A DNA stretch of 64,000 bases from Mobula hypostoma (Eukaryota). This document shows, piece by piece, positions 750 to 58,931 of this stretch (the stretch's first letter is position 1; every line of letters starts with the position of its first letter). The notes under the pieces are model-generated. The model ran no database searches. It saw only the letters and a list, made by a program, of their open reading frames with translations, and was not told where the DNA came from. Both the position numbers and the translations under genes were made by a program. The stretch lies in assembly GCF_963921235.1 (NCBI RefSeq), contig NC_086097.1, positions 5,208,001-5,272,000 on the forward strand, given 5' to 3'.

Positions 750-1260
750 GTAAACACGAGGAAATCTGCAAATGCTGGAAATTCAAGCCACACACATCAA
801 AGTTGCTGGTGAACGCAGCAGGCCAGGCAGCATCTCTAGGAAGCGGTGCAGTTAACGTTTCAGGCCGAGACCCTTCGTCAGGACTAACTGAAGGAAAAGT
901 GAGTAAGAGATTTGAAAGTTGGAGGGGGAGGGGGAGATCCAAAATGATAGGAGAAGACAGGAGGGGGAGGGATGGAGCCAAGAGCTGGACAGGTGATAGG
1001 CAAAAGGGATATGAGAGGATCATGGGACAGGAGGTCCGGGGAGAAAGACAAGGGGGGAGGGAAAGCCCAGAGGATGGGCAAGGGGTATATTCAGAGGGAC
1101 AGAGGGAGAAAAAGGAGAGAGATAAAAATAAATAACGGATGGGGTACGAGGGGGAGCTGGGGCATTAGCGGAAGTCAGAGAAGTCGATGTTCATGCCATC
1201 AGGTTGGAGGCTACCCAGACGGAATATAAGGTGTTGTTCCTCCAACCTGAGTGTGGCTTG
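750..1260 (-). mobile_element. Penelope-like element, 5'-truncated 3' end (subfamily B)
   Basis: Encodes the GIY-YIG C-terminus ATLRLEEQHLIFRLGSLQPDGMNIDFS, followed by a 3' region with a hammerhead-like motif (850-885). Matches copies at 8981, 13707, 16038 and 56520. Confidence 0.85.
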
Positions 1261-1835
1261 TTGTACTTCTATTGACCTTTCATTAATATTCCTCAGAATA
1301 TAAGTGGTGTTTGATGTTCCCTTCCCTTCGACAAAGCCGCACTGTTCTCCACTGATCTCTGGTTTAATTTTGTTTCTTATTCTGAGCATGATGATTCTAA
1401 GTAGAATTTTTGTGATATGTCTCACTAAACTAATTTTTCTGTGTTGTCCACACTCTGTTGCACCTGATTTCTTTGGCAGTGCAATGAATACTGTCTTTAA
1501 AAGATTTTCTGGTACTTTGCCACTGTTGTATATTCTATTCAATAAGATTGTTAATTTCTCTACACCAAAATCTTCTAGCGCTTCATACAGTTCAACTGGA
1601 ATGCTATCTGGTCCTATCTGCCCCTTTTGCACTTTCTTCATAGCATGTTCCACTTCTTCTTTCATTATTGCTGGGCCCTCGTTGTTGTTGCCAATATCAA
1701 ACTTGCCCTCTCGGTCTTTGCTGTTGTATAGGTCTTTGATGTATTCTGACCATCTTTGCAATATTTTTCCCTTTTCGATAATTGTAGAGCCGTCTTTTGC
1801 TTTTACACATCGTGTTGCTGCCCCACTTTTCTTCC
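1261..1835 (-). mobile_element. RTE-clade LINE fragment (RT N-terminal region)
   Basis: ORF 1165..1761: RWSEYIKDLY, GPDSIPVEL, ALPKK..ATEC, KILLRII, EQCGF..GKGT are typical RTE RT motifs. Confidence 0.8.
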
Positions 1836-2709
1836 GATTGGTGATTAGGCTCGGGTTAAATCGGGGGTCGTTGGGCAGTGTGGCTCATTGGTTCAGATGG
1901 GCCTGTTCCACACTGTATCCCTAAATAAATAGATAACTGAGACCTGGTGAGTAAATCTGTGATCCTGTCACTTAGCTGGATGGGAATAGCTCCAGTGAAG
2001 AGCAGATGGAATATACTGGATGTTCTATTAAGTTAGTTTTGTTTGATGTAATGTTTTAAATTATTTTTAAGTAATAGAAGATAAAAAATTAACATATTAT
2101 TATATTTTAAAGATTTTATTTGCATTTGACTTTCAAAAACATTCATATTTCTTAAAATGTTGACAGAAGTTCAAATTCAAGTTCAAGTTTATTGCCATCT
2201 GACTGTACATATATCCAACCATGCGAATCAATGTCCCTCTGGGCCATGGTTCATCACCAAGACCTATATCACACAAGGCACATAAAGCAAAATATTGCCA
2301 CAGATAAGTTAATAAAATATAATTCAAAACTCCTGTAATGCACAGCACAGGTAAACAATACAATAAAAGGTAAACATCTCACTGTCTAAGTGACGAGATC
2401 TCAGTGATTGCAGGGTATTCATGAGTCTCACTGTCTGGCAGTCCGAGACCTGCTGCTCCTGTACCTCCCTTCCGATGGTAGTGGGTCAAAAAGATTGTGG
2501 AAGGGGTCATGGGGATCTTCAACAGTGCTTCAGGACCTGCATCTGCTACACTCCTGAAAAATGTAACAAATGGGGCGAGAGAAAATATTGGCAGTTTTTA
2601 TTATCTTCTGTCTTGGGGTCCTCTGCCTCACAGCTTCCGGTCCACACAATTATGCAGCTAGGCAGAACACTCTTGATGGTGCTCCTATGGAACGTTGTTA
2701 GAATGGAGG

Positions 2710-5700
2710 AACAGTCACAATGTGCTGGAGGAACTCAGCACGTCAGTCAGCATCAGTTGAAAAGATTAGTCGACGCTTCAGGCCGAAACCCTTCGTCAGG
2801 ACTGAAGGAAGAACTTTGGGGAGGGTTTGAAGAATGCTGGTAGTTGAAAAAAACAGCAATTTGAAAGACAGAGGGGTGGGGGAGGGGAAGCAGGGAGGTG
2901 ATTGGCAGGAGAACAATGCGAAGTAGTAGAAGGAGGCGGAACTATGAGGGAGGTGATGTGAAATAGGTATAGAGGAAGGGAGGGGGAGGGAATTACCGGA
3001 AGTTGGAGAATTCTATGTTCATACCAAGGGGCTGGAGACTACCTGGACGGTATATTGGTGAATTGGTTAGCAGACAGGAAGCAAAGAGTGGGAATAAACG
3101 GGACCTTTTCAGAATGGCAGGCGGTGACTAGTGGGGTACCGCAAGGCTCAGTGCTGGGACCCCAGTTGTTTACAATATATATTAATGACTTGGATGAGGG
3201 AATTAAATGCAGCATCTCCAAGTTTGCGGATGACACGAAGCTGGGTGGCAGTGTTAGCAGTGAGGAGGATGCTAAGAGGATGCAGGGTGACTTGGATAGG
3301 TTGGGTGAGTGGGCAAACTCATGGCAGATGCAATTTAATGTGGATAAATGTGAAGTTATCCACTTTGGTGGCAAAAATAGGAAAACAGATTATTATCTGA
3401 ATGGTGGCCGATTAGGAAAAGGGGAGGTGCAACGAGACCTGGGTGTCATTATACACCAGTCATTGAAAGTGGGCATGCAGGTACAGCAGGCGGTGAAAAA
3501 GGCGAACGGTATGCTGGCATTTATAGCGAGAGGATTCGAGTACAGGAGCAGGGAGGTACTACTGCAGTTGTACAAGGCCTTGGTGAGACCACACCTGGAG
3601 TATTGTGTGCAGTTTTGGTCCCCTAATCTGAGGAAAGACATCTTTGCCATAGAGGGAGTACAAAGAAGGTTCACCAGATTGATTCCTGGGATCGCAGGTC
3701 TTTCATATGAAGAAAGACTGGATGAACTGGGCTTGTACTCGTTGGAATTTAGAAGATTGAGGGGGGATCTGATTGAAACGTATAAGATCCTAAAGGGATT
3801 GGACAGGCTAGATGCAGGAAGATTGTTCCCGATGTTGGGGAGGTCTAGAACGAGGGGTCACAGTTTGAGGATAGAGGGGAAGCCTTTTAGGACCGAGGTT
3901 AGGAAAAACTTCTTCACACAGAGAGTGGTGAATCTGTGGAATTCTCTGCCACAGCAAACTGTTGAGGCCAGTTCATTAGCTATGTTTAAAAGGAAGTTAG
4001 ATATGGCCCTTGTGGCTACAGGGGTCAGGGGGTATGGAGGGAAGGCTGGGTTCTGAGTTGGATGATCAGCCATGATCATAATAAATGGCGGTGCAGGCTC
4101 GAAGGGCCGAATGGCCTACTCCTGCACCTATTTTCTATGTTTCTATGTTTCTATGTTTCTATATGAGGTGTTGTTCCTCCAACCTGAGTTTAGCCTCATC
4201 ATGGCAGTAGAGGAGGCCATGTATGGACATATCTGAATGGGAATGGGAAGCAGAATTGAAGTGGGTGGCTACCGGGAGATCCTGTCTGTTGTGGCGGACA
4301 GAGTGGAGGTGCTCGACGAAGCGGTCCCCCAAGCTGCGTCGGGTTTCACCGATGTAGATGAGGCCGCACCGGGAGCACCGGATGCAATAGATGACCCCAA
4401 CAGATTTGCAGGTGAAGTGTTGCCTCACCTGGAAGGACTGTTTGGGGCCCTGAATGGTGGCAAGAGAGGAGGTGTAGGGACAGGTGTAGCACTTACGCTT
4501 ACAGGGATAAGTGCCGGGTGGGAGATCCGTGGGGATGGACATGCGGATAAGTGAGTCGTGGAGGGATCGATCCCTGCGGAAAGCGAAGAGGGGTGGAGAG
4601 GGAAAGATGTGCTTAGTGGTGGGGTCCTGTTGAAGGTGGCGGAAGTTGTGGAGGATAACGTGTTGGATCCGGAGGCTGGTGGGGTGGTAGGTGAGGACAA
4701 GGGGAACTCTGTCCCTGTTGTGGTGGCGGGAGGATGGGGTGAGGGCCAAAGTGCGGGAAATGGAGGAGATGCGGGTGAGGGCATCATTGATCACTGTAGA
4801 AGGGAAACCATGATCCTTAAAGAAAGGGGACATTTGAGATGTCCTGGAACGGAAAGCCTCATCCTGGGAGCAGATGTGGTGGAGATGGAGGAACTGGGAA
4901 TAGGGAATGGCATTTTTGCATGTGGCTGGGTGGGAAGAGGTATAATCGAGGTGGTTATGAGAGTCAGTGGGCTTGTAGAAGATGTCAGTGGACAGTCTGT
5001 CTCCAGAGATGGAGACCGAGACATCGAGAAAGGGGAGAGAAGTGTCAGAGATAGACCAAGTGAATTTGAGGGCTGGGTGGAAGTTTGAAGTAAAGTCGAT
5101 GAAATTGACGAGCTCAGCATGGGTGCAGGAAGCAGCACCAATGTAGTCGTCAATGTATCGAAGGAAAAGTTGGGGAGACGTACCAGAATAGGTTTGGAGC
5201 ACAGACTGTTCCACATAACCAACGAAGAGGCAGGCGTAGCTGGGTCCCATGCAAGTTCCCATAGCTACACCCTTAGTCTGAAGAAAGTGGGAAGAGCCAA
5301 AAGAGAAGTTATTAAGTGTGAGAACCAGTTCCGCCAACCGGAGGAGGGTAGTGGTGGTGGGGAACTGGTGAGGTCTATTGTCCAGGTAGTAGCAGAGGGC
5401 TTTGAGGCCTTCTTGATGGGGAATGGAGGTGTATAAGGATTGGACATCCATAGTAAAAATGAAGCGGTTGGGACCAGGGAACTGGAAGTTATTGAAGAGG
5501 TGGAAGGCATGGGATGTATCCCGGATGTAGGTGGGGAGGGACTGAACTATGGGTGACACAATGGAGTCCAGGTAGGCAGATACAAGTTTGGTGGGACAGG
5601 AGCAGGCAGAAACTATGGGTCTACCGGGACAGTCAGGCTTGTGTATCTTGGGGAGGAGGTAAAACCGAGCGGTACAGGGTGTGGGAATAATGAGTTTAGC

Positions 5701-6740
5701 GGCTGAGGATGGAAGGTCTCCGGAGTTGATAAGGGCAGTGACGGTACAGGAGACAATGGTTTGATGTTTTTTGGTGGGGTTCTGTTCCAGGGGTAAGCAA
5801 GAGGAAGTGTCAGAGAGCTGCCGTTTGGCCTCAGTGTCGTAGAGGTCCGTCTGCCAGACTACTATAGCACCACCTTTGTCAGCGGGTTTGATGGTGAGGT
5901 TGGGATTAGTGCGGAGAGAGGGAGGGCAGTGTGTTCAGAGGGAGTGAGGTTGGAACAGGAGAGAGGAGTGGTGAAGTTGAGACAGTTGATGTCTCGGTGA
6001 CAGTTGGAGATGAAGAGATCGAGTGCAGTAAGAAGGCCCGTGCGGGGTGTCCAGGAGGAGGAGGAGGGTTGAAGACAGGAGAAGGGGTCATCAGTAGGGG
6101 GAGGGGAATCCTTGCCAAAGAAGTAGGCTCGGAGACATAGGCGACGGAAGAAGAGTTCAGCGTCACGGCGGGCTCAGAACTCACTGAGGTGTGGTCGGAG
6201 GGGAAACAAAAGTGAGGCCCTTGCTAAAGACAGAACGTTATGCCTCAGAGAGGGAAAGGTCAGAGGGGATGGTGAAGACATGGCAATGTTTGGGGCTGGG
6301 GTTGGAGAAGGGTGAAGAGTGGGAGGTCTCAGGAGGGAGAGGAGGGTTGGGATGTTCAGGGAGAGCGGGATTAGGGGAGGATGAGGAATCAGAGGAATGG
6401 ATGGACGATGAGGGGTAGAGGGATGTTTGGGAGTCGATGGGAGGAAAGAGGGTAGTGGGGGAATAGGATAGGCGGTGGGACCCAGCAGCAGTAAGAGCGG
6501 TTCCAGTTTGGAGAGTTTCAGGACCTCCGTAGGAGCTGGATCCTAAACTTGGCGTGGCGGAGACTGTATCCTGCAGTGCCCCAGAACTGAGGTCGGAGTC
6601 GGAAACGAATGAGTTCATGGCTCGTCGGGGGCTGGTTCCCCTTTTCGGGAGGCGGTGGTTCCAGTCAGGGTCAGAACCAGAGGCGGAGGGTCTCCGGCCT
6701 GCTGAAGGACTGAGAAGTCGAGGTCCGAGGGGTTTCGGTC
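2710..6740 (-). mobile_element. Penelope-like element (Neptune-like, Cys-rich linker), long arm, interrupted by CR1 at 3056-4160
   Basis: N-terminal SKGLTFVP, then KPADKGGAIVVW. RT motifs TMDVQSLYTSI, GVAMGT and LRYIDD; CYTCP linker; GIY-YIG motif VIY...YIGET (ORF 4159..5559). The C-terminus resumes at 3055-2993. Confidence 0.92.
3056..4160 (+). mobile_element. Young 5'-truncated CR1 LINE
   Basis: Uninterrupted 333-aa ORF with GVPQGSVLGP, KFADDTK and LVRPHLEYC; (CTATGTTT)n tail; flanked by (T)ATAT target duplication at 3051-3055 and 4160-4164. Confidence 0.95.
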
Positions 6741-8192
6741 CGGCTACGCCTGCCTCTTCGTTGGTTACGTGGAACAGTCTGTGCTCCAAACCTATTCTGG
6801 TACTGCTCCCCAACTTTTCCTTCGATACATTGACGACTACATTGGTGCTGCTTCCTGCACCAATGTAGTCGTCAATTTCATTGACTTTACTTCAAACTTC
6901 CACCCAGCCCTCAAATTCACTTGGTCTATCTCGGACACTTCTCTCCCCTTTCTCGGTGTCTCGGTCTCCATCTCTGGAGACAGACTGTCCACTGACATAT
7001 TCTACAAGCCCACTGACTCTCATAACTACCTCGACTATACCTCTTCCCACCCCGCCACATGCAAAAATGCCATTCCCTATTCCCAGTTCCTCCATCTCCA
7101 CCTTATCTGCTCCCAGGATGAGGCTTTCCATTCCAGGACATCTCAAATGAACCCTTTCTTTAAGGATCATGGTTTCCTTTCTACGGTGATCAATGATGCC
7201 CTCACCCGCATTTCCTCCATTTTCCGCACTTCGGCCCTCACCCCATCTTCCCGCCATCACAACAGGGACAGAGTTCCCCTTGTCCTCACCTACCACCCCA
7301 CCAGCCTCCGGATCCAGCACATTATCCTCCGCAACTTCCGCCACCTTCATCAGGACCCCACCACTAAGCACATCTTTCCCTCTCCACCCCTCTCCGCTTT
7401 CCACAGGGATCGATCCCTCCGCGACTCACTTATCTGCACGTCCATCCCCACGGATCTCCCACCCGGCACTTATCCCTGTAAGCGTAAGTGCTACACCTGT
7501 CCCTACACCTCCTCTCTTGCCACCATTCAGGGCCCCAAACAGTCCTTCCAGATGAGGCAACACTTCACTTGTAAATCTGTTGGGGTCATCTATTGCATCC
7601 GGTGCTCCTGGTGCGGCCTCCTCTACATCGGTGAAACCCGACGCAGCTTGGGGGACCGCTTTGTCGAGCACCTCCACTCCGTCCGCCACAACAGACAGGA
7701 TCTCCCGGTAGCCAGCCACTTCAACTCTGCTTCCCACTCCCATTCAGATATGCCCAAACATGGCCTCCTCTACTGCCATGATGAGGCTAAACTTAGGTTG
7801 GAGAAGCAACACCTCATATACCGTCTAGGTAGTCTCCAGCCCCTTGGTATGAACATAGAATTCTCCGACTTCCAGTAATTCCCTCCCCCTCCCTTCCTCT
7901 GTCCCTATTTCACATCATCTCCCTCATAGTCCCGCCTCCTTTTACTACTTCGCATTGTTCTCCTGCCAATTACCTCCCTGCTTCCCCTCCCTGACCCCTT
8001 TGTCTTTCAAATTACTGTTTTTTCCAACTACCAGCATTCTTCAAACCCTCCCCAAAGTTCTTCCTTCAGTCCTGACGAAGGGTTTCAGCCCAAAACGTTG
8101 ACTAATCTTTTCAACTGATGCTGACTGACCTGCCGAGTTCCTCCAGTGCATTGTGAGTGTTCCTTTAACAACAGCATCTGCAGATTATTTAG
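6741..8192 (+). mobile_element. Penelope-like element, inverted short arm (RT C-half, GIY-YIG, 3' end)
   Basis: ORF 6769..7878 closely matches ORF 4159..5559 in the opposite orientation. The two-arm unit is flanked by a 14-bp TSD TGTTAGAATGGAGG (2696-2709, 8193-8206). Confidence 0.92.
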
Positions 8193-8980: not shown

Positions 8981-10473
8981 AAACGCAGACATGAGGAATT
9001 CTGCAGATGCTGGAAATTCAAGCAACACACACAAAAAATGCTGGTGAACACAGCAGGCCAGGCAGAATCTACAGGAAGAGGTACAGTCGACGTTTTGGGC
9101 CAGGACCCTTTGTCAGGACTAACTGAAAGGAGAGCTAGTAAGAGATTTGAAAGTGGGAGGGGGAGGGGGAGATCCAAAATGATAGGAGAAGACAGGAGGG
9201 GGAGGGATGGAGCCAAGAGCTGGAGAAGGGAGAGGATCATGGAACAGGAAGCCTGGGGAGAAAGAGAAGGGGGGAGAGGAGCCTGGAGGGTGGAGAGCAA
9301 CCAAGGAGTTATAGTGAGAGGGACAGAGGGAGAAAAAAGAGAGAGAGGAAAAAAAGCGGGGGAAATAAAAAATATATAAAAAATATATTAAATAAATAAG
9401 GGATGGAGTGTGAAGGGGAGGAGGGGCATTAACAGAAGTTAGAGCAGTCAATATTCATGCCATCAGGTTGGAGGCTACCCAGACGGAATATAAGGTGTTG
9501 TTCCTCCAACCTGAGTGTGCTTCATCTTGACAGTAGAGGAGGCCGTGGATATAATGGGAATGGGACGTGGAATTAAAGTGTGTGGCCACTGGGAGAGCTT
9601 GCTTTCTCTGGCGGACGGAGTGTAGGTGTTCAGCGAAACGGTCTCCCAGCCTGCGTCGGGTCTTGTCAATATATAGAAGGCCACACTGGGAGCACCGGAC
9701 GCAGTATATCACCCCAGCCGACTCACTGGTGAAGTGTTGCCTCACCTGGAAGGACTGTTTGGGGCCCTGAATGGTGGTGAGGAAGGAAGTGTAAGGGCAT
9801 GTGTAGCACTTGTTCCGCTTACAAGGATAAGTGCCGGGAGGGAGATCAGTGGGGAGGGATGGGGGAAACGAATGGACAAGGGAATCGCGTAGGGAGCGAT
9901 CCCTGCGGAAAGTTGGGGGGGGAGGGAAAGATGTGCTTAGTGGTGGGATCCCGTTGAAGGTGGCGGAAGTTACAGAGAATTATATGTTGGACCCGGAGGC
10001 TGGTGGGGTGGTAGGTAAGGACCAGAATAACCCTGTTCCTAGTGGAGTGGCGGGAGGATGGAGTGAGAGCAGATGTGCATGAAATGGGGTAGATGCGTTT
10101 GAGAGCAGAGTTGATGGTGGAGGAAGGGAAGCCTCTTTCTTTAAAAAAGGAAGATATCTCCTTCATCCTGGAATGAAAAGCCTCATCCTGAGAGCAGATG
10201 TGGCGGAGACAGAGGAATTGCGAGAAGGGGATGGTATTTTTGCAAGAGACAGAGTGAGAAGAGGAATAGTCCCGGTAGCTGTGAGAGTCCGTAGGCTTAT
10301 AGTAGACATCAGTAGATAAGCTGTCTCCAGAGACAGAGACAGAAAGATCAAGAAAGGGGAGGGAGGTGTCGAAAATGGACCAGGTAAGCTTCAGGGCAGG
10401 GTGAAAGTTGGAAGCAAATTTAATGAAGTCAACAAGCTCAGCATGCGTGCTGGAAGCAGCGCCAATGCAGTCA
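8981..10473 (-). mobile_element. Penelope-like element (subfamily B), 5'-truncated, inserted in a CR1 3' tail
   Basis: Degraded RT/GIY-YIG reading frames; TSD AATTAC at 8975-8980 and 10474-10479. The host CR1 tail continues at 10474-10860. Confidence 0.88.
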
Positions 10474-11126
10474 AATTACGCCATTCAGCTCATCGAGTCT
10501 GCCCCACCATTCCACAAGGCTGATTTGTTATCCCTCACAACCCATTCTCTTGCCTTCTCTTGCCTATAACCTTTGACACTTTGACTAATCAAGAACCTAT
10601 CAACCTTCGCTTTAAATATACCCAATCACTTGGCCCCCACAGCAGTCCGTAGCAAAAAAATCCACAGATTTACCACCCTCTGGCTAAAGAAATCCCCCTC
10701 ATCTCTGTTTTAAATAGGCGTCCATCTATTCTGTGTTTGTGCCCACTGGTCCTCGACTCCTCCACTACTGGAAACATCCTTCCCACACCACTCTACCCAG
10801 ACCTTTCAATATTCAATAAGTTTCAATGAGATTCCCCCTCATTCTTCTAAACTTCAGTGAGCAAAGAGGAGTGGGCTCAGGGTAAAACATAATACCACAT
10901 GCATGGTACACTCTGCTTTTGAAAGTGTGTCTCGTACAAATCACTTGATCTGACTTTTATAAGCTGATTACTATGTGCTTATTCTACAACATTGTGTATT
11001 AAGCGTTTGCAATTGCATAGAACATTTTGCTCCATTTTTTAACTCAATACAAGTCACTCAAAGTATTAATTATAAAGATGTTTTTTTACATTTCATAGCT
11101 TGCTGTTCTATTATTGATTCTATATG

Positions 11127-22469: not shown

Positions 22470-23530
22470 GTGCCATGTGCTTCCCTGGTGTCATGGATTC
22501 TTGATTACTTGACTGGCAGACCACAGTACGTGTGCTTGCAACACTGTGTGTCTGACAGAGTGATCAGCAGCACTGGGGCTCCACAGGGGAATGTCTTGTC
22601 TCCATTTCTCTTCACCATTTACACCTCGGACTGCAACTACTGCACAGAGTCTTGTCATCTTCAGAAGTTTTCTGATGACTCTGCCATAGTTGGATGCATC
22701 AGCAAGGGAGATGAGGCTGAGTACAGGGCTACGGTAGGAAACTTTGTCACATGGTGTGAGCAGAATTATCTGCAGCTTAATGTGAAAAAGACTAAGGAGC
22801 TGGTGGTAGACCTGAGGAGAGCTAAGGTACCGGTGACCCCTGTTTCCATCCAGAGGGTCAGTGTGGACATGGTGGAGGATTACAAATACCTGGGGATACG
22901 AATTGACAATAAGCTGGACTGGTCAAAGAACACTGAGGCTGTCTACAAGAAGGGTCAGAGCCGTCTCTATTTCCTAAGGAGACTGAGGTCCTTTAACATC
23001 TGCCGGACGATGCTGAGGATGTTCTACGAGTCTGTGGTGGCCAGTGCTATCATGTTTGCTGTTGTGTGCTGGGGCAGCAGGCTGAGGGTAGCAGACACCA
23101 ACAGAATCAACAAGCTCATTCGTAAGGCCAGTGATGTTGTGGGGATGGAACTGGACTCTCTCACGGTGGTGTCTGAAAAGAGGATGCTGTCTAAGTTGCA
23201 TGCCATCTTGGACAATGTCTCCCATCCACTACATAATGTACTGGGTGGGCACAGGAGTACATTCAGCCAGAGACTCATTCCACCGAGATGTAACACTGAG
23301 TGTCATAGGAAGTCATTCCTGCCTGTGACCATCAAACTTTACAACTCCTCCCTTGGAGGGTCAGACACCCTGAGCCAATAGGCTGGTCCTGGACTTATTT
23401 CATAATTTACTGGCATAATTTACATATTACTATTTAACTATTTATGGTTCTATTACTATTTATTATTTATGGTGCAACTGTAACGAAAACCAATTTCCCC
23501 CGGGATTAATAAAGTATGACTATGACAATG
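22470..23530 (+). mobile_element. Rex1/Babar-type LINE, 5'-truncated, young
   Basis: Uninterrupted 303-aa ORF: STGAPQG.VLSPFLF, KFSDD, LNVKKTKELVVD, YKYLG, RLYFLRRL, HPLH. 3' AATAAAGTATGACTATGAC tail. Confidence 0.9.
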
Positions 23531-25675
23531 AAGTTTAGATGGTGGGGTAGAGAAACTTAAGGATTTGTAGCAGCAGTACAGTACATTGCATAAAATTATC
23601 ATAACACAAAAATAATTAAATGGTGTAAAAGAGAAATCGTAAGGCAGTGAACATGGATTCGTAGATGCAGCCTGGCCTGCAGAGTTCCTCCAGCATTTTG
23701 TATGTGTTGCTCGCCTTACCCAGTGTGATGTGTGATGGAAATGAACTTTACCCTCTTCTGAATCTTCTTGCTCTTCATTTGCTTCGATTTTGTAGTCAGC
23801 GAGCAAAGGAATTAAAGGAAACTTTAATTTTCCCTCCTGAGTGGGTTATATCCGGTAGAACACAGGGCTATTTGAGTTGTAAATGCGGGGTAATTATTCA
23901 CAATTAGCACACATCAAATCAATGTGTGTGTGTTTTTCTCAGTAGTCCTTTGCATCCCAATTAACTCTATGTGGTATAAAAATAATCAAGTGGAATATTA
24001 AATGCGTCCATCCAATTTAAACCGTCTAGTAGGTGAGAATACTTGACCTCTCAACAAGATGGTCTAACTTTCAATCCATGTTAAAATAAACAAGTGAGCC
24101 AAAGACGGTTCAGCACTGACTGGATGGGCTGAAGGACCTGTTTATGTGCTGCACTTTGACTCTGTGAGACTATGACTCTACGTTATAGCAAATTCTGCTC
24201 CAGAAAGTGCAAACATTATATTTCAGGAAATAATGTATTAAAATTGGAAAGGAATTCCACTCTTAAAAAAAAAGCTCAGGACTGCCAGGGATGAAGGTGT
24301 AGTTAGCAAAAATTTCCTGTAGTTGTGTGATTTTTAAGGTGCTTTTAAAATGTCACAAATTCTGGACACGCTCCGATACAGTGGCTGCTCTGTGACCAAT
24401 CAAAGGTGTAATTGTTCATCCTTCACATCTTTTTCAAAGTAGCAAGGTACGTTTGTATATTAAAAACATGAAGAACTGTGGGTCTATCCCATTGTCGAGT
24501 TGCTCGATAGCGCGGGAGCTAGGCTTGAGCTGAGGCCTGCTGCAGAAACTCAAGGAGGAAGGCCTCAGAGGTGATGTGGGGAGGCTGTACACAGTGCAAC
24601 AAACAGTGCAAATGATTGTATTTTTGTGTTCCGTTGAATGACAATTAAACTTGAACCTGAAATTGACTTGATGGTCTTTTTGAATGACCTTAAAACAGTA
24701 CACTGTGTCAAAATAATGAGACGATAGAAGGTGAAGTTGTGACTCCTTGTAGCCCAGGGAAATGTAAGAGAGGCGGATAAAAAGAGATAATATCACTCCT
24801 GTTTATTAGTCAATAGACTGGTGTGGGAAGTTCCTGGGGAGTTTCTAATTATCTTACCAGCAGGATCCCTGACAAAACAGCATAATTGGCAGAATTCACA
24901 ACATGTCTTTGGGGCTTCCTCCAATCAAGTGTCTCAGTTACAGCTGGAGAATGGGGAATTCCCTGCTGAATTTATAGTCTACTCCATTTGCAGTTGGCAG
25001 ATGTCCAGTGAAAGACTGTTTAACTAAGTAGCAAGTATAAAGCACTGGTAATGTATTCAAGAACCAAAGATGCTATGTAAAATACCCCTTGACATTTGTA
25101 CCCCAGAATAATAATTCTATCTATGAAATGTATCAATGCCTCTCATAATCTTATAAACTTCCATCAGGTCTTTGTTAGCCTCAGAAGTTCCAGATTAATC
25201 AATCCAAGTTTCTCCAATTTATACCATTGAGTCTAGGCAGCATCCTAATAAATATCTTCCACAATGTTTTCAAAGCCCCCACACCCTTCCCGTAATGTAA
25301 GAAAGCAAGATATTTATATGAAGCTGGAATGAAGAATGTAGCTTAGCAGGTAGCAAATGCCATTACGGCTTGGGGCATGGAGTTCAGAGTTCAATTCTGG
25401 TGTCTTCTGTAAGGAGTCTGTATGTCCTCCCCATTGAATGCGTGGGTTTTCTCTGGATCATACTGATTATGGGCACCAATCCATTCACTGATATATTCTC
25501 CATTTGGCCTTCAATGGTCCGATCTACGTGCAACGTTGAACTGAACTAAACTGAATACTACTGGACTCTTGGTCGGATGTTCAATATTCTCTGTGTTCTC
25601 CACTTGCTTTTTGCCATTTGTGCAATTTGTTCTTTTCTCGTGAGTTAGGTGTTTGAAGTTTTCTTGAATAGGTTC

Positions 25676-25985
25676 TGTGCCATATAGCCTACATTATAAT
25701 AAGGGACTACTTTATGTTCAAAGCCAAGATTGGACTCATAAGCCACTTCAGAGCCCATAAGGAGATCAACAGAACGAAGACCATCATCCTCGACCTCAAG
25801 AGATAGCCACGATGACAACGACTTTATGTTTTAGTCACACGTCGTTGTCTGCGCTATTAGGCGCGTATTGATCTGTACGTGTGTGCTGAGTTCGGATTCG
25901 GCCGGTAAAGAACCATGAAACTTAGATCCCATCTCCAGCATTTTTATTAACAGCATTGTTGTGTAGCCAGACCACATACACAACA
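25676..25985 (+). repeat. 5' LTR (198 bp plus a 112-bp insertion)
   Basis: Aligns end to end with 29034-29231 after removing 25719-25830; about 17 substitutions by manual count. Confidence 0.93.
25719..25820 (+). mobile_element. RTE LINE extreme 3' end inserted in the 5' LTR
   Basis: Translates KAKIGLISHFRAHK, resembling the RTE C-terminal C2H2 finger end; 10-bp TSD ACTTTATGTT (25709-25718, 25821-25830); absent from the 3' LTR. Confidence 0.75.
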
Positions 25986-26359
25986 AATTGACGACGAGGT
26001 TAATGAACCTACATCGTATCGGAACGCCGTGTTTTAATTGGTAACAACACTCGGAGGAAGAGCGCAAGGAACGAGCCAAGGAGCGGGAGAAGGAGGCAGA
26101 GTGAGGCCGCGAGTCCGAAAGGAAGTGGGAGCACAGCCAGTGTCGGGAACGTCGGGAGACCAAGAGACACAATCTGAGCCACAGCACATCCAGCCGAGAC
26201 CACAGCCTGCGCTGACCCTCAGGGACTGAGGGTCTGCCTGCCCCAGAGGGGAGATAAAAAGGAGTGACACATGCATCTAGACGGAGTGGCGCTAGCAAAA
26301 AGGACATGTGAGTCAAAAAGAAAACTAGGGGAGAACGGGGCTTAATTAACATAACAAAG

Positions 26360-27550
26360 ATGGCCATGATCGGAACCATTACAGCATTTGATAGTGGCAT
26401 TGAAGACTGGGCAACTTACATTGAGAGAGTGGAGTTATAGTGTGAGGCTAGCGGTGTTAATGATGAAAAGAAAGCCAGCGTCTTACTCAGTATTATGGGA
26501 GCAAAAACATACAAGCTGCTACGGAGCTTGTTAACCCCTGAAAAGCCAGCTGACAAAACATTCAAGCAAATAGTAGACACTCTCCAACAGCATTTAAACC
26601 TCAAACCACTGGTCATTGCTGAAAGATTTAAATTTCACAATCGGAATCAAAGCAAACATGAAAGCATTTTTGGATATTGTGCTGAATTGTGCAAATTATC
26701 AGAACATTGTCAATTTGGAGCTGGTCTATCGCACGCATTGAGGGACAGGTTAGTGTGTGGCATGCACTGTGAAACCACACAGAAGAGGCTCCTGGGTGAA
26801 AAAGACCTTACATTAGAGAAGACGCTGAACATTGCAATATCAATGGAAAGAGCAGCACGGGGTGCTTCAGAGATTCAACAAAAATCTCTGGAATATGCTA
26901 TGTATAAAATGTCACTGAACAGAAATGAAGGGAAGAAATGTTACTGTTGTGAGAACAGGTCACATCACCCTGGTGACTGTTGGTTTAAAGACAAAGAATG
27001 CAGAAACTGTGGCAAACAGGGCCACACTGGCAGAGTATGCAAAGCTAGTAAACAGCAGAAAAAGGACAAAATACAGAGAAACAAGAAACCCCAGAAAGGA
27101 AAACACAACAATGTACACAAAATGGGCGAAAGCAGTTCTGATGAAAACGACTCAGATGAAAGTAAATTGTCTTGTCTGCAACTTCACAGCGTGAAAGAGA
27201 CAGATGATCAAAGAGTAATAAGGATCACTCCATAAGTGGCAGGTGTGAGACTTAAAATGGAGTTGGATACAGGCTCAGCTTTAACAGTGATCTCTGTACA
27301 TGACTACAAATGACTGTTTTCTCACATACCTCTGAAACGAACTAAACTACTGCTAAAGACTTACACAAGACAGAAAGTGCATCCCAAATGTGAAATTAAA
27401 GTGACAGTGAACTATGGAGTCAAAACACAGCAACTGAACCTCTATGTACTGAAAAATGGAGGACCACCATTGCTGGGACGTGAATGGCTCAGGAAAATCC
27501 AGTTGGATTGGCACACCATCAAGGCACTAGATGTGTTAACAAAGGAGGGC
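26360..27550 (+). pseudogene. Gypsy gag plus aspartic protease (single frame, 3 in-frame stops)
   Basis: MAMIGTITAFD..EDWATYIER, PLVIAERFKFH, LRDRLVCG, two CCHC knuckles (CYCCENRSHHPGDC, CRNCGKQGHTGRVC), protease MELDTGS and LLGREWL. Stops at 26438, 27233 and about 27311. Confidence 0.9.
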
Positions 27551-27565
27551 AGCTCGGTGGGGAAG

Positions 27566-28499
27566 ATGTCCACAGCTCTTCTCTCACCCATGGTCGACTA
27601 TTACAACGATGAGGAGGAGCTAGACAGCGTCGATGATGAGGATGAACGCAGTATCCGTGGCTGCGACTCGGATGAAGATACAGAGGATGCAAGGGAGACA
27701 GATATTGCCAATAAGCAGGATGATGAAGACTACCTGGAAGTAAAAGAACAGATGTACCGGAAAAATTGACATCTCCCAAAAGACAGCTACAGCAGTTACA
27801 GGAAGGCACTTTGCAGGAGTATCAGAAAAGGATGAAGGATCTAGATCAACAATACAAGGAAAGAATACAAAACGCAGAGCTTTTTTCTGCAACTGGAGAC
27901 AGAACAAGTGGAAAGGAATTATATTAAAGAGAAGAAAGCAGCAGTGAAGGAATTTGAAGATAAAAAGATTGAGTTAGAAGGGAAAAAAGAGGATTGAGAA
28001 TGAGAGGCTAACAATGGAACTCACAGGACACTCTATGGAGGTAAAGTTAATAATGACTAGGAAACTAAGGAGGAGACCTAATGACCCTGTTCCAATTACA
28101 GACAAAAGACGAAAACCTGCACCTGCGCAGTTAAATTACTTGTTAACAGATGAACAGATAATAGAAGATCTGAGAACTCTCAATAAGCTTAAATCTCCAA
28201 AAATACCAGCATCTCTGTCTTCTCCTGAGCATCTTCCCAGCACTCCTGCTGAATCACCAGCACAAAGATATGAAGCATGAATAGAAGATGGTAAGTTATA
28301 TTACGATTAGAGATGGTATCATAAAGGTCAGGCTATCTATTTGGAATCTAATGAGAATACAAAGATTGACTGTGTAATTAGCTCAGTTGGAACAAATGAG
28401 ATATGGGTAAGGAAGACAAGTGATAGCACAAAGATGCGTGTATATCTAGGACAGCTGCACAGAGGAGTCTTCATTATACGGAGGCGATCTGCTGCATAG
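27566..28499 (+). pseudogene. SUDS3: Intronless retrocopy of Sin3 histone deacetylase corepressor complex component SDS3
   Basis: Recognisable from start to stop: [132 protein letters not shown]. Frameshifts near 27758, 27885 and 27990, a deletion of about 24 nt, and stops at 28278 and 28308. Confidence 0.95.
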
Positions 28500-29033
28500 A
28501 ACTCTTAGCAAGTTGGAGGTGCACATCTTCTTAACTCCCTATGCTCAGAGGTCAACTTTTCATGACTTTTATGTGGAAATCTGTATTAAAACAAACAAGT
28601 TTATTGAGAGACTGAAGAACACACTATTTGAAGACACTTTCCAATGCCATCTCAGTTTTGACGATTGTACATATTTTTAAGAATAACATTCTCCTTTTCA
28701 CGGATTTCACTTTGCTTTCGTCATCTTTGTAAGATGGAGGTGACTACTCTTTATGGCTGGAACCTGCCAATTTGTGGATTGTTTAATTTATTCCAGACAA
28801 CAGACTGAAGACCTATTTGCTTCATGCCAGACAATCTAGAGAAGACCCATCCCCCCAGAGACTTGAGTTATAAATTCACCAAAAGTGAAAAAAGGGCTTG
28901 TTATAATTTGATATTATTAAGTTACTAAGTAAACAAATGGTAGGTGTTTGTACGTTAAGGGTAAACATATTTGTTTTGCATAATGCCCCAGTAAAAAAAC
29001 AGTTGATACACTATTAAAATAAAAGGGGAGGAG

Positions 29034-29231
29034 TGTACCGTATAGCCTACAGTATAATAAGGGACTACTTTATGTTTTAGTAACACGTCGTTGCTTGCGC
29101 TACTAGGCACGTATTGATCTGTACGTGTGTGCCGAGTTCGGATTCAGTGAGTAAAGAACCATGAAACTTAGCTCCCGTCTCCAGCATTTTTATTAATAGC
29201 ATTGTTGTGTAGCCAGGCCACATACACAACA
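29034..29231 (+). repeat. 3' LTR (198 bp)
   Basis: Begins TGT right after the PPT, ends ACA, followed by the GGTTC TSD. Confidence 0.93.
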
Positions 29232-30164
29232 GGTTCTATGGTGTTTCTCTGTTTTGTGGCTGCCCGTGGGAGGACAAATCTCAGAGTTGTATTCTGTATG
29301 CATACTTTGATTATAAATGTACTTTGAATCTTTGATCATTTTAACTTCCAAGTTCTGAGGAACAGATTGTAACAGATGCCACAATTGTAAAAGATTATGT
29401 GGTTGAGAATGTGGCCATACTGGGGTAATCAAACACAGTGAGACATAATGCATAAATAATAGAGCTGTGAGAATTAACTTTGTGAATATGAATATGATTA
29501 AATACATGTCTTATGAATAACTTAATGCATTTACACATCCACCATACGACATTTATGAGCTCTAGTGCTTCCTCCTGATTTCTGAACAGAACAGTAGTTG
29601 GGATAGTGATATGGATTAGAAACCAGGAAAATAACAATCAGTTTTTATTTTATTTAGAGATACAGCGTGGAACAGTCCCTTCCAGCCCAACGAGCGGCAC
29701 CACAGCGCAATTTAATCCTAGCCTAATCCCAGGACAATTACAATGGCCAATTAACCTACTGACCAGTAAGTCTTTGGAATGTGGGAGGAAAGCGGAGCTC
29801 CTGGAGGAAATCCATGTGGTAACGCGGAGAACGTACAAATTCCTTACAGAGAGTGCCAGAATTGAACTCTGAACTCCGACACCCAGAGCTGTAATAACAT
29901 TGTGCTAACCGCTCCTCTACTGTGGCAGTTTGCAACGGTCCACTTCAAGATTAAGAACTGTGACAGGCAAGGGTGAAAGGAAAACCTGGAAATCTCTTGG
30001 CTACGGCTAACAGAGGAGAGAGAGAGTATAAATCCAGTGTGAGATCAAAGGAAAAAGTGTGATTTCAATGGGAGTTACCTTAAGATAAACCTGTTGATTA
30101 TAAAACCGCTGTGGACAATTGATGAGAACCAGTTACTGCCCATGGTGCTGGAGGTTTTCTGTAG

Positions 30165-31850: not shown

Positions 31851-34800
31851 CAGGCAGGTAGGCAGAGGAAGTGGTGTGGTTTTGTTGGTGAAAATTGAAA
31901 TCAAGTCATTAGAAAGAAGTGACATAGGGTTGGAAGGTGTAGAATTGTTGTGGGTAGAACTAAGGAACTGCAAGGGTAAAAAGACCGTGATGTGACTTAT
32001 ATACAGACACCACCCCGCCCCCCGCCCAAATAGCAGTAAGGATGTGGTCTACAGATCACAATGGGAGATTGAAAATGCATGTCAAAAGGGCAATGTTACA
32101 ACAGTCATGGGGGATTTTAATATGCAAGTAGATTTGGACAATCAGGTTTGTGCCCAAGAGGGGAAGTTTCTAGAATGCCTATGAGATTTTTTTTTAAAGC
32201 AGCTCAAGATTGAGCCTATGAGGGGATCAGCTATTCTTGATTGGATGTTGTGCAATGAACCAGAATGAATTAAAGAGCTTAAGGTAAAGGAACACTTAGA
32301 GTTAAGTGAGCATAACATGATCAGATTCACCTTGAAATTTGAGAAGGAGAAGCTATAGTCAGATGCTTCAGTATTCATATAGAGCAAAAGGAATTATGGG
32401 GACATAAGAGAGGAGCTGGTTAAAGTTGTTGGCAGACCAGCAGTGGCTGGAATTTCTGGGAGCAATTTGGAAGAAACAGGATGTATACATCACAAAAAGG
32501 AAGAAGTATTCTTAAGGCAAGATGCCACAACTGTGGATTGCAAAAGAGGTCAAAGCCAACATAAAAGTCAAGGAGAGAATAATATAGAAAAAAATAGTGA
32601 GAAGTTAAAGGTTTGGGAAGCTTTTAACAACCAACAGAAGGCAACTAAAAAGTCAAAAAGCAGAAAAAGATGGAACAGGAAGTTAAGCTATTTAATTATA
32701 AAAATGAGGATAATAAAAGTTTCATCGGATATACAAAGTGAAAAGAGTGGCAAGAGTAGATATCAGACTGCTGAAAATTGATGCTGGAGAGCTAGTAATA
32801 GAACATAGAAACATAGAAACATAGAAAACCTACAGCGCAATACAAGCCCTTCGGCCCACAAAGTTGTGCTGAACATGTCCCAACCTTAGAAATTACTAGG
32901 CTTACCTATAGCCCTCTATTTTACTGAGCTCCATGTACCTATCTAAATGTCTCTTAAATGACTCTATCGTATCCACTTCCACCACCGTTGCCGGCAGCCC
33001 ATTCCACGTACTCACCACTCTCTGAGTAAAAAACTTACTCCTGACATCTCCTCTGTACCTACTCCCCAGCACCTTAAACCTGTGTCCTCTTGTGGCAGCC
33101 ATTTCAGCCCTGGGAAAAAGCTTCTGACTATCCACACGGTCAATACCTCTCATCTTATACACCTCTATCTGGTCACCTCTCATCCTCCGTCACTCCAAGG
33201 AGAAAAGGCCGAGTTCACTCAACCTATTCTCATAAGGCATGCTCCCCAATCCAGGCAACATCATTGCAAATCTCCTCTGCACCCTTTCTATGTTTTCCAC
33301 GTCCTTCCTGTAGTGAGGTGACCAGAACTGAGCACAGTACTCCAAGTGGGGTCTGACCAGGGTCCTATATAGCTGCAACATTACCTCTCGGCTCCAAAAT
33401 TCGATTCCACGATTGATGAAGGCCAATACACCGTATGTCTTCTTAACCACAGAGTCAACCTGCACAGTTGCTTTGAGCGTCGTATGGACTCAGACCCCAA
33501 GATCCCTCTGATGCTCCACACTGCCAAGAGTTTTACTATTAATACTATATTCTGCCATCATATTTGACCTACCAAAATGAACCACCTCACACTTATCTGG
33601 GTTGAACTCCATCTGCCACTTCTCAGCCCAGTTTATCAATGTCCCGCTGTAACCTCTGACTGCCCACCACACTATCCACAACACCTCCAACCTTTGTGTC
33701 ATCAGCAAACTTACCATCCCATATCTCCACTTCCTCATACAGGTCATTTATAATAATCACAAAGAGTAAGGGTCCCAGAACAAATCCCTGAGGCACACCA
33801 CTGATCACTGGCCTCCATGCAGAATATGACCCATCTACAACCACTCTTTGCCTTCTGTAGGCAAGCCAGTTCTAGATCCACAAAGCAATGTCCCCTTGGA
33901 TCCCATGCCCCTTTACTTTCTCAATAAGCCTTGCATGGGGTACCTTATCAAATGACTTGCTGAAATCCATATACACTCCATCTACTGCTCTTCGTTCGTC
34001 AATGTGTTTAGTCACATCCTCAAAAAATTCAATCAGGCTCATAAGGCACGACCTGCCCTTGACAAAGCCATGCTGACTACTCTTAATCATGTTATACCTC
34101 TCCAAATGTTCATAAATCCTGCCTCTCAGGATCTTCTCCATCAACTTACCAACCACTGAGGTAAGACTCACTGGTCTATAATTTCCTGGGCTATCTCTAC
34201 TCCCTTTCTTGAATAAAGGAATAACATTCGCAACCCTCCAATCCTCTGGAACCTCTCCCGTCCCCATTGATGATGCAAAGATCATCGCCAGAGGCTCAGC
34301 AATCTCTTCACTTGCTTCCCATAGTATCCTGGGGTACATCTCATCCGGTCCCGGCGACTTATCCAACTTGATGCTTTCCAAAAGCTCCAGCACATCCTCT
34401 TTCTTAATATCTAATTGGGGAGAAGGAAATTGCAGACAAACTGAATAAGTATTTTTGTATCAGCATTCACTGTGGAAGAAACTGGCAGTATGCCAGAAAT
34501 TCGAGAGTGTCAGGGGGTGTAAGGTTCTGGGGAAGTTGAAAGATTTGAAGGTAGATAGGTCACCCAGATGAGATGGCATATATCCTAGGATCTGAAAGTG
34601 GTGGGCGACGAGATTGTGGAGGCAATATTAATGATCTTTCAAGAATCAATTGATTCTTGCTTGATTCCAGAAGAATGGAAAATTGCAAATGTCATGACAC
34701 TCTTCAAGAAGAGAGGGAGGTAGACGAAAGGAAATTCTAGACCAGTTAGTCTGACTTCAGTGGTTAGAAAGAACTTGGAGTTGATTGTTAAGGATGTGGT

Positions 34801-53379: not shown

Positions 53380-55385
53380 TATTTGAGAAGTCCATGTGAT
53401 ACAGTATCTACAATTAGGGAATGAGACAGGGCAAGTGGCAGATGTTTGTGTAGGCGAAGATTTTGCATCTAGTGACCTCAATGCCATTAGTTTCAAAGTA
53501 AATATGTAAAAAAATAGGTCTGGTCCATAGGGTGAGATTCTAAATTGGAGAAAGGCAAATTTCGATGGTTTCAGAAATGATTTGGCAAGTGTGGATTGGG
53601 AGAGTCTGTTTTCTGGAAAAGGTGTACTTGGAAAGTGGGAGGCCTTCAAATACAAAATTTTAAGAGTTAAAAGCTTGTGTGTGCCTGTCAGTATAAAAGT
53701 TTAAGATAACAAGTGAAGGGAACCTTGGTTTTCAGGAGATATTGAGGCCCTGGTTCAGAGAGAAAAGGAGGTGCATAGAAAATTTATGCAGGTAGAAACA
53801 AATGAGGTACTCGTAGAGTACAAAAAAAGCAGGGGAATGCTTCAGAAAGAAATCAGGAAGGTTAAAGAAGGCATGGTTGATCCAGCAGACAAGGTGAAGG
53901 AAAATCCTAAGGGATTCTACAGGTATGTTAAGAGCAAAAGGATTGCAATGAACAAAACTGGTCCTCTGGAAGATCAGAATGGTAATCCATGTGTGGAGCC
54001 AGAGCAGGAAGCGGAGATCTTAATTGCATCCTTTGCATCTGTATTTACTCAGGAGATGAATACAGAGTCCATAAAAGTGAGGCAAACTGGCATCAATTTC
54101 ATGGACTCTGTACAGATTACAGAGGAGGAGGTGTTTACTACGCTAAGGCAAATCAGGGTGGATAAATCCCCAGGGCCTGACAACGTGTTCCCTCTTACCC
54201 TATGGGAGGCAAGTGTAGAAATTGCCCAGGCCCTAGCAGAGATACTTAAATCATCCTTAATCGTGGACTGATTAAGGATGGTCAGCAAAGGTTCGTGCAT
54301 GAACGGTCATGTCTAACCAAACTTACAGAGCTTTTTTGAAGGAGTTACCAAGACAGTGGATGAAGGCAAGACAGTGGATATTGTGTACATGGACTTTAGC
54401 AAGGTATTTGAAATGATCCAGCATGGGAGGTTGGTTAAGAAGGTTCAGTCACTCGGCATTCAAGATGAGGTAGTAAATTGGATTAGATATTAGCTTTGTG
54501 GGAGAAGCCAGAGAATGATAGTAGATGGTTGCCTCTAACTGGAGGCCTGAGACTAGTGGTGTGTCACAGGGATCAGTGCGGGGTCCTTTGTAGTTCGTCA
54601 TCTATATCAATCATCTGGATGATAATGTGGTTAACGGGATCAGCAAATTTGTGGATGACTCCAAGATTGTGGTGGTATTGGACAGCAAGGAAGGCTATTG
54701 TGACTGGCAGAGGGATCTGTATCAGCTGGACAAATGGGGTGAAAAATGGGAGATGGAATTTGATGCAGACAGGGTGCGAAGTAGGACCAAGGAGGGTAGG
54801 ACTTACATAGTAAACAGTGGTGAAGTGAGGAGTGTGGTAGAACAAAGCGATCTGGGAATACAAGTCCATAATTCATTGCAAGTGGTGTCACAGGAAGACA
54901 GGATCATAAAGAAAGCTTTTGGCGCTGTGGCCTTCATAAATCAATGTATTGAGTACAGAAGATGGGATGTTAATGCTGAAGTTGTATAAGACATCATTGA
55001 AGCCTAATTTGGAGCATTGTGTGCAGTTTTAATCACCGACCTACAGAAAGATGTAAACAGGGTTGAAAGAGTGCAGAGCAAATTTCAAGCATGTTGCCGT
55101 GGCTGGAGGACCTGAATTATAAGGAAAGATTGAATTGGTTAGGACTGTGTTCTTTAGAATGTATGAGGTTGAGAGGAGATTTGGTAGAGTTATGCAAGAT
55201 TATGAGGGTTGTGACAGTGTGGAATAAGCTGCAGTCCACGTGAGCTCGATTTGGAGAGAAGTTTGAATAGGTACATGGATAGTAAGGATATGGAGGTCTA
55301 TGGTCCTGGTGCAGGTCGATGGTAGTGAGCAGTTTAAATGGTTCAGCATGGACTAGATGGGCTTAAGGGCCAGTTTCTGCCCATC
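53380..55385 (+). mobile_element. Old CR1 with frameshifts and deletions
   Basis: KENPKGFYRYVKSK, FASVFT, KSPGPD, SKFVDDSK, DLGIQVH. Confidence 0.85.
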
Positions 55386-55579
55386 TATTTGTTGTATTCT
55401 TACATCTCCTTTCAGCTTTGTATCATCACAAAACTTGGATTTAGTATTTTCTTATCTAAATCACTATGATGGCACTCCCAGTTTCCCAGATTCCAACCAA
55501 ACATTATCCCTTTATTCCTACTTTTTATTATCTGTGCATTAACCAAATCATGTGCTCTAATTTTCTTAAATATCCACTT

Positions 55580-56423: not shown

Positions 56424-56519
56424 TTGATCACCTTCACTCAATGCTTCCATCCCTCCAGTGTTTGCTCAGTTCTGCCATCCAGTGTTTGCTCAGTGGAAGA
56501 ACAAGCTGGACACTCAAGG

Positions 56520-58899: not shown

Positions 58900-58931
<32 letters not shown>

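Follow-up and report, generated by a model that had tools for sequence, protein, structure and literature searches.

Contig NC_086097.1 of the Mobula hypostoma RefSeq assembly GCF_963921235.1 contains, within a stretch of 64,000 nucleotides (positions 5,208,001 to 5,272,000; hereafter the window), a gypsy-type long terminal repeat (LTR) element at window positions 25676-29231 in which a copy of SUDS3 takes the place of pol. SUDS3 encodes SDS3, a subunit of the Sin3/histone deacetylase (HDAC) corepressor. How did a host message come to lie inside such an element, and is this copy a single accident or a member of a mobile family? An earlier note, made from the letters of the window, had read the locus as a template-switch capture and had suggested that a non-autonomous family may have mobilised the host gene. 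From the analysis described here it is highly probable that the window holds a decayed copy of a non-autonomous Ty3/gypsy-type family, in which SUDS3 was captured by template switching and which was spread by the enzymes of an autonomous partner element.

The element is made up of LTRs, a primer site, gag and protease, an intronless SUDS3 cDNA, a short pol tail and a polypurine tract. The LTR pair, the GGTTC target duplication, the primer-like site and the polypurine tract described in the earlier note were all found at the positions it had given, and the gag-protease region that it had placed upstream of SUDS3 was likewise identified. The segment before the polypurine tract, which it had called element-like (28841-29033 including the tract), corresponds to the end of the partner's pol, the 3' untranslated part and the polypurine tract itself. 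The absence of reverse transcriptase (RT), RNase H and integrase was borne out: the partner sequence between the end of the protease and the last ~11 pol codons is not there. Neither a poly(A) tract nor a target duplication is present around the SUDS3 part, as had been claimed. This part (27554-28840) is full-length and intronless, with a 5' leader of 12-19 nt and a 3' untranslated region (UTR) of 342 nt, where a short leader and about 300 bp had been reported. The start-to-stop coding sequence described in the note is, however, not intact; in the window the SUDS3 frame is closed by three frameshifts (about 27758, 27881 and 27990) and two in-frame stops (28281 and 28308), and it carries a 24-nt deletion that is considered below.

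The identity of the cargo rests on PDB sequences and on a homologue search. The C-terminal piece of the window's SUDS3 matches SDS3 (7sxi_A, E 1.4e-39) and the Sin3-interaction peptide (2n2h_A, 4e-8); a PDB sequence search with the 55-residue middle piece gave no match, and Pfam gave none at E 0.01 for the broken pieces of the window. With the stop-free frame of another copy as query, 1125 SDS3 homologues were found at E<=1e-5, the best matches being SDS3 proteins of rays (89%), and the Pfam domain PF08598 was present in all of the best 120 of these 1125.

The parent gene was located with a 48-residue query that includes eight residues absent from all element copies. This query ranked one locus, on contig C78 at 8.40 Mb, above 149 element copies. 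Within 60 kb around this locus, 12 SUDS3 exons are collinear with window 27544-28840, and the multi-exon parent to which the earlier note had wanted the cargo aligned is thus a 12-exon gene. Its spliced coding sequence specifies 319 amino acids and equals the named ray SDS3 (P0004), except for an 8-residue stretch of the P0004 gene model. Window 28399-28840 is 94.8% identical to the last exon and 3' UTR of the parent (C78:8380738-8380296). Past the point at which the SUDS3 3' UTR breaks off in the element, the parent continues into unrelated sequence without an A-run, and parent transcript contigs extend beyond it. The entire family lacks 24 nt (8 residues, KENLIAEL) at about 27975, between two TGAGTT repeats inside one exon; in the protein the missing residues fall after the N-terminal acidic part and before the Sin3-interaction region. 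The deletion looks like the type made by reverse transcriptase slipping between short repeats. The host SUDS3 gene also has micro-exons of 20 and 22 nt, and a U12-type AT-AC intron (ATATCCTT...AC) at C78:8398854-8395736 (L055), between the exons ..KPAP and AQLNYLL.

Relatives of the gag-protease region were used to find the autonomous partner. A genome search with the polyprotein P0121 gave best matches that span residues 1-712 at 66-72% identity, with stops (63 scored of 57,249 first-look candidates). One piece of the autonomous element (L060) is 92% identical over 636 nt, gap-free, to window 26918-27553, and then departs at 27553 into RT (..KEGSKATSERLSQILADSEEVF..) where the window enters SUDS3; this is the comparison with an autonomous element that the earlier note had proposed. 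A second piece (L061, contig C50) carries the end of pol (..RRPPQRLEL and a stop), the 3' untranslated part, the polypurine tract and the start of an LTR. It matches the window at 28838-28873 (86% over 36 aligned columns, with 31 matches and a gap in four of the rest) and at 28898-29131 (88% from 28898). The end of the partner's pol, ..PQRLEL, resembles the end of P0122, ..PKRLDL. The partner's sequence from the end of the protease to the last ~11 pol codons has therefore been replaced in the window element rather than interrupted, and both LTRs have been kept.

At the 5' junction, the partner reads CAAAGGAGGGCAGC followed by AAGGCT, the chimera reads CAAAGGAGGGCAGC followed by TCGGCGGGGAAGATG, and the SUDS3 parent reads GGGGGCGGGCAGC followed by TCGGCGGGGAAGATG. 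The three share a 7-nt microhomology, GGGCAGC, and protease and SUDS3 are joined in frame. Two types of 3' junction were found. In type A, the type of the window, the 3' UTR ..GACAATCT is joined to pol at AGAGAAGACC; in type B the 3' UTR is broken 228 nt earlier and is joined to CAGACGTTACCCGGAGAGGCAGAGAAGACC, with a 5-nt microhomology, CAGAC. Type B has 20 nt more of pol than type A and less of the UTR, and thus neither type can be derived from the other by deletion. Types A and B are two separate switches with one common 5' junction. The search for junction microhomology that had been recommended in the earlier note thus yielded 7 nt at the 5' junction, 5 nt at one of the two 3' types and none at the other. 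Each of the three checks that it had proposed turned out in favour of its interpretation as template-switch capture.

The extension of that interpretation to a mobilised family also held. When patterns for the junctions were searched in the genome, the 5' junction matched at 315 places, the type A 3' junction at 112 and the type B 3' junction at 155; the partner's own protease-to-RT sequence matched at 184. The reversed-pattern control was zero for each of these patterns and for those of the further cargo given below. With a 301-nt junction query, all 40 scored matches (of 661 first-look candidates) span the junction at 92-100% identity, on many contigs, and the same in-frame 5' junction is present in all 39 sampled copies other than that of the window. 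Target duplications could be scored in 11 of these 39 with a strict pattern that called for both LTR ends; nine are perfect 5-bp duplications, two agree at 4 of 5 positions, and all are different. The window copy and L009, which lies 1.9 Mb away (G000:C1), are mutual closest relatives with a support of 0.97. Their duplications differ (GGTTC and GATGG), which indicates that one late source was inserted twice and that neither copy is a segmental duplicate of the other. In L018, L025, L036, L040, L041 and L046 the 5' LTR is ~198 nt and the 3' LTR ~224 nt long, and in L016 the reverse is seen; this ~25-nt indel between the LTRs of one insertion may reflect recombination between co-packaged RNAs of different sub-families.

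Some members of the family carry further host sequences. In four sampled copies, L014 (732-1958, minus strand), L015, L038 and L042, a 1.2-kb segment stands in place of window 27943-28532. The first 700 nt of this segment correspond to a Y-box protein cDNA, with the 5' UTR and the greater part of the coding sequence (Pfam CSD, E 3.6e-19, above the cut-off; YBX1 6lmr_A, E 9e-38), and this YBX1-like cDNA is joined in frame at about residue 127 of SDS3. The remainder is a fragment of RNF213, the gene for an antiviral E3 ligase, on the opposite strand; 221 contiguous residues read antisense to the element match residues 3719-3941 of 9jwg_A (E 5.6e-38). The RNF213 fragment is also found in ten further sampled copies in other arrangements, with left borders that differ between sub-families; antisense examples are L030:3236-4032 (opposite strand), L035, L036, L011, L032, L043 and L045. 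Pattern matches numbered 28 for the junction of SUDS3 with YBX1, 56 for that of SUDS3 with antisense RNF213, and 25 for that of antisense RNF213 with the 3' UTR. Two other identities for the extra segments were considered and rejected. As SUDS3 introns they had no match in the 60 kb of the parent locus except to common repeats, and a tblastn comparison with P0122 ruled out pol.

The tempo of the expansion can be read from the copies. Diversity of SUDS3 at the three codon positions is 0.080/0.070/0.080 (40 copies), and none of these 40 has a whole open SUDS3 frame. Distances within and between structural sub-groups all fall between 7.1 and 8.3%, and the tree is star-like. The sampled copies thus record one burst followed by neutral decay. 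Their identity to the parent mRNA is 92.1-95.4%, with a median of 93.9%. Near-fixed differences from the parent number 14 in 936 coding sites. Two of these are artefacts of aligning the sequences beside the deletion; the others are ten silent changes and two replacements (P187T and S263G), and the 3' UTR has three in 120 sites. In true SDS3 proteins, of which seven from rays and a chimaera were compared, the P and the S are kept. The six models that NCBI names 'SDS3-like' in two Mobula species all have the T, the G and the deletion, which places both replacements on the branch of the element. As for the ten silent differences, roughly that number would be expected from drift at silent sites of the host gene while each copy itself drifted by about 4%; on that estimate there is no evidence of selection keeping the cargo, nor of a long gap between capture and burst. 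The proteins P0002, P0003, P0005, P0006, P0007 and P0009 are family copies annotated as 'SDS3-like' genes. The linker between protease and SUDS3 is present in P0009 and P0003, and P0009 joins it to the leader frame as if spliced.

The features of the window element are collected in Table 1. The repeat finder, given positions 25000-30000, aligned the LTR pair at 91% identity over 168 nt and 93% over 43 nt. The insertion within the 5' LTR has no counterpart in other copies, which align to 25676-25718 and resume from 25818 or 25850; the inserted repeat is a high-copy one, with high contig depth and loose ends at 25719-25818, and this fragment of ~100 bp entered the LTR after the element had landed. 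The common 11-nt form of the primer site, TGGCGACGAGG, complements ..CCTCGTCG plus the CCA end of a tRNA. A pattern search found 15 genome loci with the anticodon loop CTGCTAA, a T-loop and the exact matching 3' end, and none with the reversed pattern; the primer is therefore tRNA-Ser(GCU). Gag and protease make a single frame that continues stop-free through the linker into the start of SDS3. Three stops (26438, 27233 and 27311) lie within the gag-protease frame of the window, and that at 27233 is TAA in the window versus CAA in the autonomous piece L060. The Pfam match to gag-asp_proteas is weak (19.1 bits, under the 28.2-bit cut-off). The region is 59-64% identical to its gag-protease counterpart in the four best-matching polyproteins, P0121-P0124, and three of these have ~1300 residues. 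In P0122 and P0123 the order is protease (DTGS), RT (YLDD), integrase zinc finger and DDE, which is the Ty3/gypsy order; the window element has no pol of its own, and no env was seen in the element or in the domain lists of its relatives. With its LTRs, target duplication, primer site, polypurine tract, CCHC knuckles and D(T/S)G motif, the window element is a non-autonomous Ty3/gypsy (Metaviridae) derivative.

Table 1. Features of the SUDS3-carrying element and its immediate borders, in window coordinates.
Feature	Position	Strand	Basis
5' target-site duplication GGTTC	25671-25675	+	Direct reading; second copy at 29232-29236
5' LTR with TG..CA ends, split by a private insertion	25676-25985	+	Direct repeat of the 3' LTR
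Fragment of another repeat, ~100 bp, inside the 5' LTR	25719-25818	.	10-bp flanking duplication ACTTTATGTT
Primer-binding site TGACGACGAGG (TGGCGACGAGG in most copies)	25989-25999	+	Complement of a tRNA-Ser(GCU)-like 3' end
gag (two CCHC knuckles) and aspartic protease (DTGS), ancestrally one frame	26360-27553	+	64% to P0121
Microhomology of the 5' junction, GGGCAGC	27547-27553	+	Three-way comparison of autonomous element, chimera and SUDS3 5' UTR
SUDS3 5' UTR remnant, in frame with protease (linker ..KEGSSVGK-M)	27554-27565	+	Aligns with parent exon 1, C78:8439661-8439525
SUDS3 coding sequence, intronless, broken	27566-28499	+	PDB SDS3 match; exon-by-exon match to parent
SUDS3 3' UTR, first 342 nt, without poly(A)	28500-28840	+	94.8% to parent (window 28399-28840)
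Tail of the autonomous element: last ~11 pol codons (..PQRLEL and stop) and 3' untranslated part; type A 3' junction	28841-29020	+	Match to L061
Polypurine tract AAAAGGGGAGGAG	29021-29033	+	Direct reading; conserved beside the 3' LTR across copies
3' LTR	29034-29231	+	Direct repeat of the 5' LTR
3' target-site duplication GGTTC	29232-29236	+	Direct reading

Elsewhere in the window, frames of non-LTR reverse transcriptases are dense (1165-7878, 9846-10475, 22470-23381, 33872-34459 and 53717-62597), and several of them come as near-identical pairs, such as 2962-4056 with 57426-58337. The rest of the window showed no frame of a host gene, and Rfam gave no match in the window.

Sequencing runs provided a view of the junction that does not depend on the assembly. 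Between 12 and 43% of the sampled words of the element are present in twenty run rows with eight coded organism labels. Four small runs, guessed to be RNA, were examined. Runs X15 and X16 (label A) and X19 (label G) yielded contigs that cross the 5' junction and extend 31 nt or more to either side of it, and the junction coordinates are thereby confirmed independently of the assembly; a junction contig of run X17 has 25 nt on the element side and was excluded from the bridging count. Parent-type spliced contigs in the same runs carry the 24 nt deleted from the family and extend into the parent 3' UTR. A loose end at 27553 in run X16 reads the RT continuation of the partner. A spliced leader-to-junction transcript, as modelled in P0009, was not seen among the joints of the four runs.

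These observations can be accommodated in a simple scheme for the origin and spread of the family. The founder would have arisen during reverse transcription in a particle of the autonomous partner, when the enzyme quit the element RNA near the end of pol and continued on a co-packaged, spliced SUDS3 mRNA. This mRNA would have been copied from its 3' UTR to about 12-19 nt short of the start codon, where the enzyme would have moved back onto the element RNA just after the protease, at the 7-nt microhomology. In this way the SUDS3 copy would have taken the place of about 2.7 kb that encode RT, RNase H and integrase. The founder would have kept the LTRs, the tRNA-Ser primer site, the leader, gag-protease and the polypurine tract, and its RNA would therefore still have been packageable, copyable and integrable by the partner's enzymes, which presumably mobilised it in trans. 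Its product would have been a single Gag-protease-SDS3 fusion protein. In one burst the founder would then have reached 315 insertion sites or more, with target duplications of 5 bp, and so have exceeded the 184 protease-RT places of the partner. Additional template switches in the course of the burst would have added the second 3' junction and, in sub-families, the in-frame YBX1-like cDNA and the antisense RNF213 fragment. SDS3 was probably a passenger.

Several points weigh against this scheme. A chimeric transcript, produced by read-through or by splicing in the manner of the classical model of oncogene capture, could instead have given rise to the 5' junction, and the window's own type A 3' junction is the one that lacks microhomology. 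The RNF213 piece may derive from a single exon rather than from a cDNA. The autonomous element is known here from two pieces, of 1001 and 501 nt, and all of the top partner matches contain stops, so they do not show a present-day source of the enzymes. The family counts are pattern matches that allow 2-3 mismatches and CpG-degenerate positions and are not a curated census, and the 39 other sampled copies are those nearest to the window at the junction rather than a random sample.

Three other explanations were weighed against template-switch capture of a passenger. One is that a SUDS3 processed pseudogene made by a long interspersed nuclear element (LINE) was inserted in a gypsy element and that the two were afterwards copied together. 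Fragments of LINE reverse transcriptases abound in the window, and passages of a preprint (bioRxiv 10.64898/2026.06.26.734816) place SUDS3 among the most retrocopied genes of cartilaginous fishes and tie retrocopy numbers to non-LTR elements. The structure of the insert is nevertheless not that of a LINE product: poly(A) is lacking, the 3' UTR ends 342 nt past the stop codon while parent transcripts continue, and there is no duplication beside the SUDS3 part. The lack of poly(A) and of a target duplication around SUDS3 excludes a LINE-made pseudogene that landed later; pol has been replaced and not interrupted, the junctions have microhomology, and one 5' junction is common to two different 3' junctions. 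We therefore regard such an origin as having almost no chance of being correct. It is also quite improbable, if somewhat less so, that some copies have been adopted by the host as working SDS3-like retrogenes. Six NCBI 'SDS3-like' models were listed for two Mobula species, two of them with 311 residues from start to end; all six models bear the hallmarks of the family, and the junction is bridged by contigs from runs guessed to be RNA. Against adoption, a few open frames are expected by chance among several hundred copies. The frame is open in none of the 40 sampled copies and diversity is neutral; the RNA status of the runs is guessed, and the bridging contigs could come from carry-over of DNA of a 300-copy repeat.

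The third explanation gives the cargo a use. The Gag-protease-SDS3 protein, and later the YB-1 fusion, might have aided the element by bringing Sin3/HDAC and an RNA chaperone into particles or by blunting silencing. This would explain how the family outgrew its partner (315 places against 184), and both of the sense-strand captures are in frame with gag-protease. Precedents can be cited: bird endogenous retroviruses (ERVs) captured cold-shock domains several times, according to the relevant passages of PMC12287698, and parts of PMC2685004 and PMC6040738 report, as cofactors of HIV, YB-1 and an SAP18-HDAC1 complex present in HIV-1 virions. Two in-frame joins, however, have a chance of about 1 in 9, and the codon positions are equally diverse, with no trace of purifying selection. 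The ten synonymous against two non-synonymous changes would be close to silent drift of the host gene since the burst. The loss of two thirds of SUDS3 did not keep sub-families from spreading (28 and 56 copies), and non-autonomous elements without cargo often exceed their partners in number, as a passage of PMC5131818 notes. On balance we doubt that the cargo was useful. The broader form of the idea, in which the lineage collected replication helpers, SDS3 and then fusions of the N-terminal part of SDS3 with YB-1, that gained it an edge over the partner by acting in particles or by soaking up the silencing complex, seems to us unlikely to a similar degree. If it were true, the capture of cold-shock domains by bird retroviruses would be a parallel case of one adaptive theme.

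Capture by template switching followed by spread with partner enzymes bears on a recent observation. The preprint cited above names SUDS3 as one of the five parental genes with the most retrocopies in cartilaginous fishes. It is very likely that these retrocopies are the same copies as those of the LTR family. The passages of the preprint that bear on SUDS3 give no mechanism for it and link retrocopy load to non-LTR elements, whereas here the vehicle is an LTR family. With this family, the excess of SUDS3 'retrocopies' reported from cartilaginous fishes acquires a concrete mechanism. Counts of retrocopies can reflect one mobile family and not many independent events, and annotation pipelines label copies of such a family as 'SDS3-like' genes. 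Through this family the complete, in-frame gene of a chromatin-silencing subunit was amplified several hundred times over in the germ line of a vertebrate, and the founder junction with its later switches is a natural record of reverse transcriptase shuffling host messages. No account of a SUDS3-carrying LTR element was found in the passages returned by our literature search, and a search on Mobula transposable elements and on non-autonomous elements with transduced genes gave nothing relevant.

Acutely transforming retroviruses have defective genomes that have lost pol, carry host cDNA in frame with gag, show a non-homologous 3' switch and depend on a helper. The ray family resembles them in these gag-onc features, as a likeness of mechanism only. 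Unlike them, it is an intracellular gypsy element without env, inherited through the germ line and present in hundreds of fixed copies, and its cargo is a corepressor subunit where theirs is a growth-promoting gene. Among LTR elements, maize Bs1, the rice elements with pieces of host genes and HERV-K with FAM8A1 are capture elements of low copy number. In the passages of PMC5131818 that cite them, these are, like the ray element, LTR elements with fragments of up to three unlinked cellular genes; they come from plants or from a single human locus and carry gene fragments, whereas here the coding sequence is complete.

With its YBX1-like cargo, the family adds a case from a fish lineage to the cold-shock domains that reverse-transcribing elements have repeatedly captured. 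In the passages concerned, He et al. (2025, Mol Biol Evol, PMC12287698) describe 46 bird ERVs with cold-shock domains, for which repeated independent captures were inferred. In both cases a host cold-shock domain of the Y-box type was taken up by a reverse-transcribing element. In contrast to the bird retroviruses, the element of the ray is a gypsy element, and the cold-shock domain is its second cargo, in frame behind a truncated SDS3.

The closest counterparts are the LTR-mediated retrocopies of animals described by Tan et al. (2016, Genome Res, PMC5131818). As in the cases set out in the relevant parts of that paper, an intronless host cDNA replaces an internal part of the element, both LTRs are kept, and the insert has neither poly(A) nor a duplication of its own. 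Microsimilarity at the switch points has a median of 6 bp in those cases; here it is 7, 5 and 0. Some of the loci of Tan et al. combine several parental genes, and the authors suggest in the same passages that behaviour as non-autonomous elements is possible. The cases that they present there are single loci or a few identical copies, whereas the ray family comprises at least 315 insertions, more than its partner. It differs from them further in having a complete coding sequence in frame behind gag-protease, two 3' junctions for one 5' junction, and continued captures. LTR-mediated retroposition by template switching is thus a known process; what is new here is how far the family has multiplied in a vertebrate, the complete in-frame coding sequence of a Sin3/HDAC subunit, the record of one 5' and two 3' junctions, and the serial captures.

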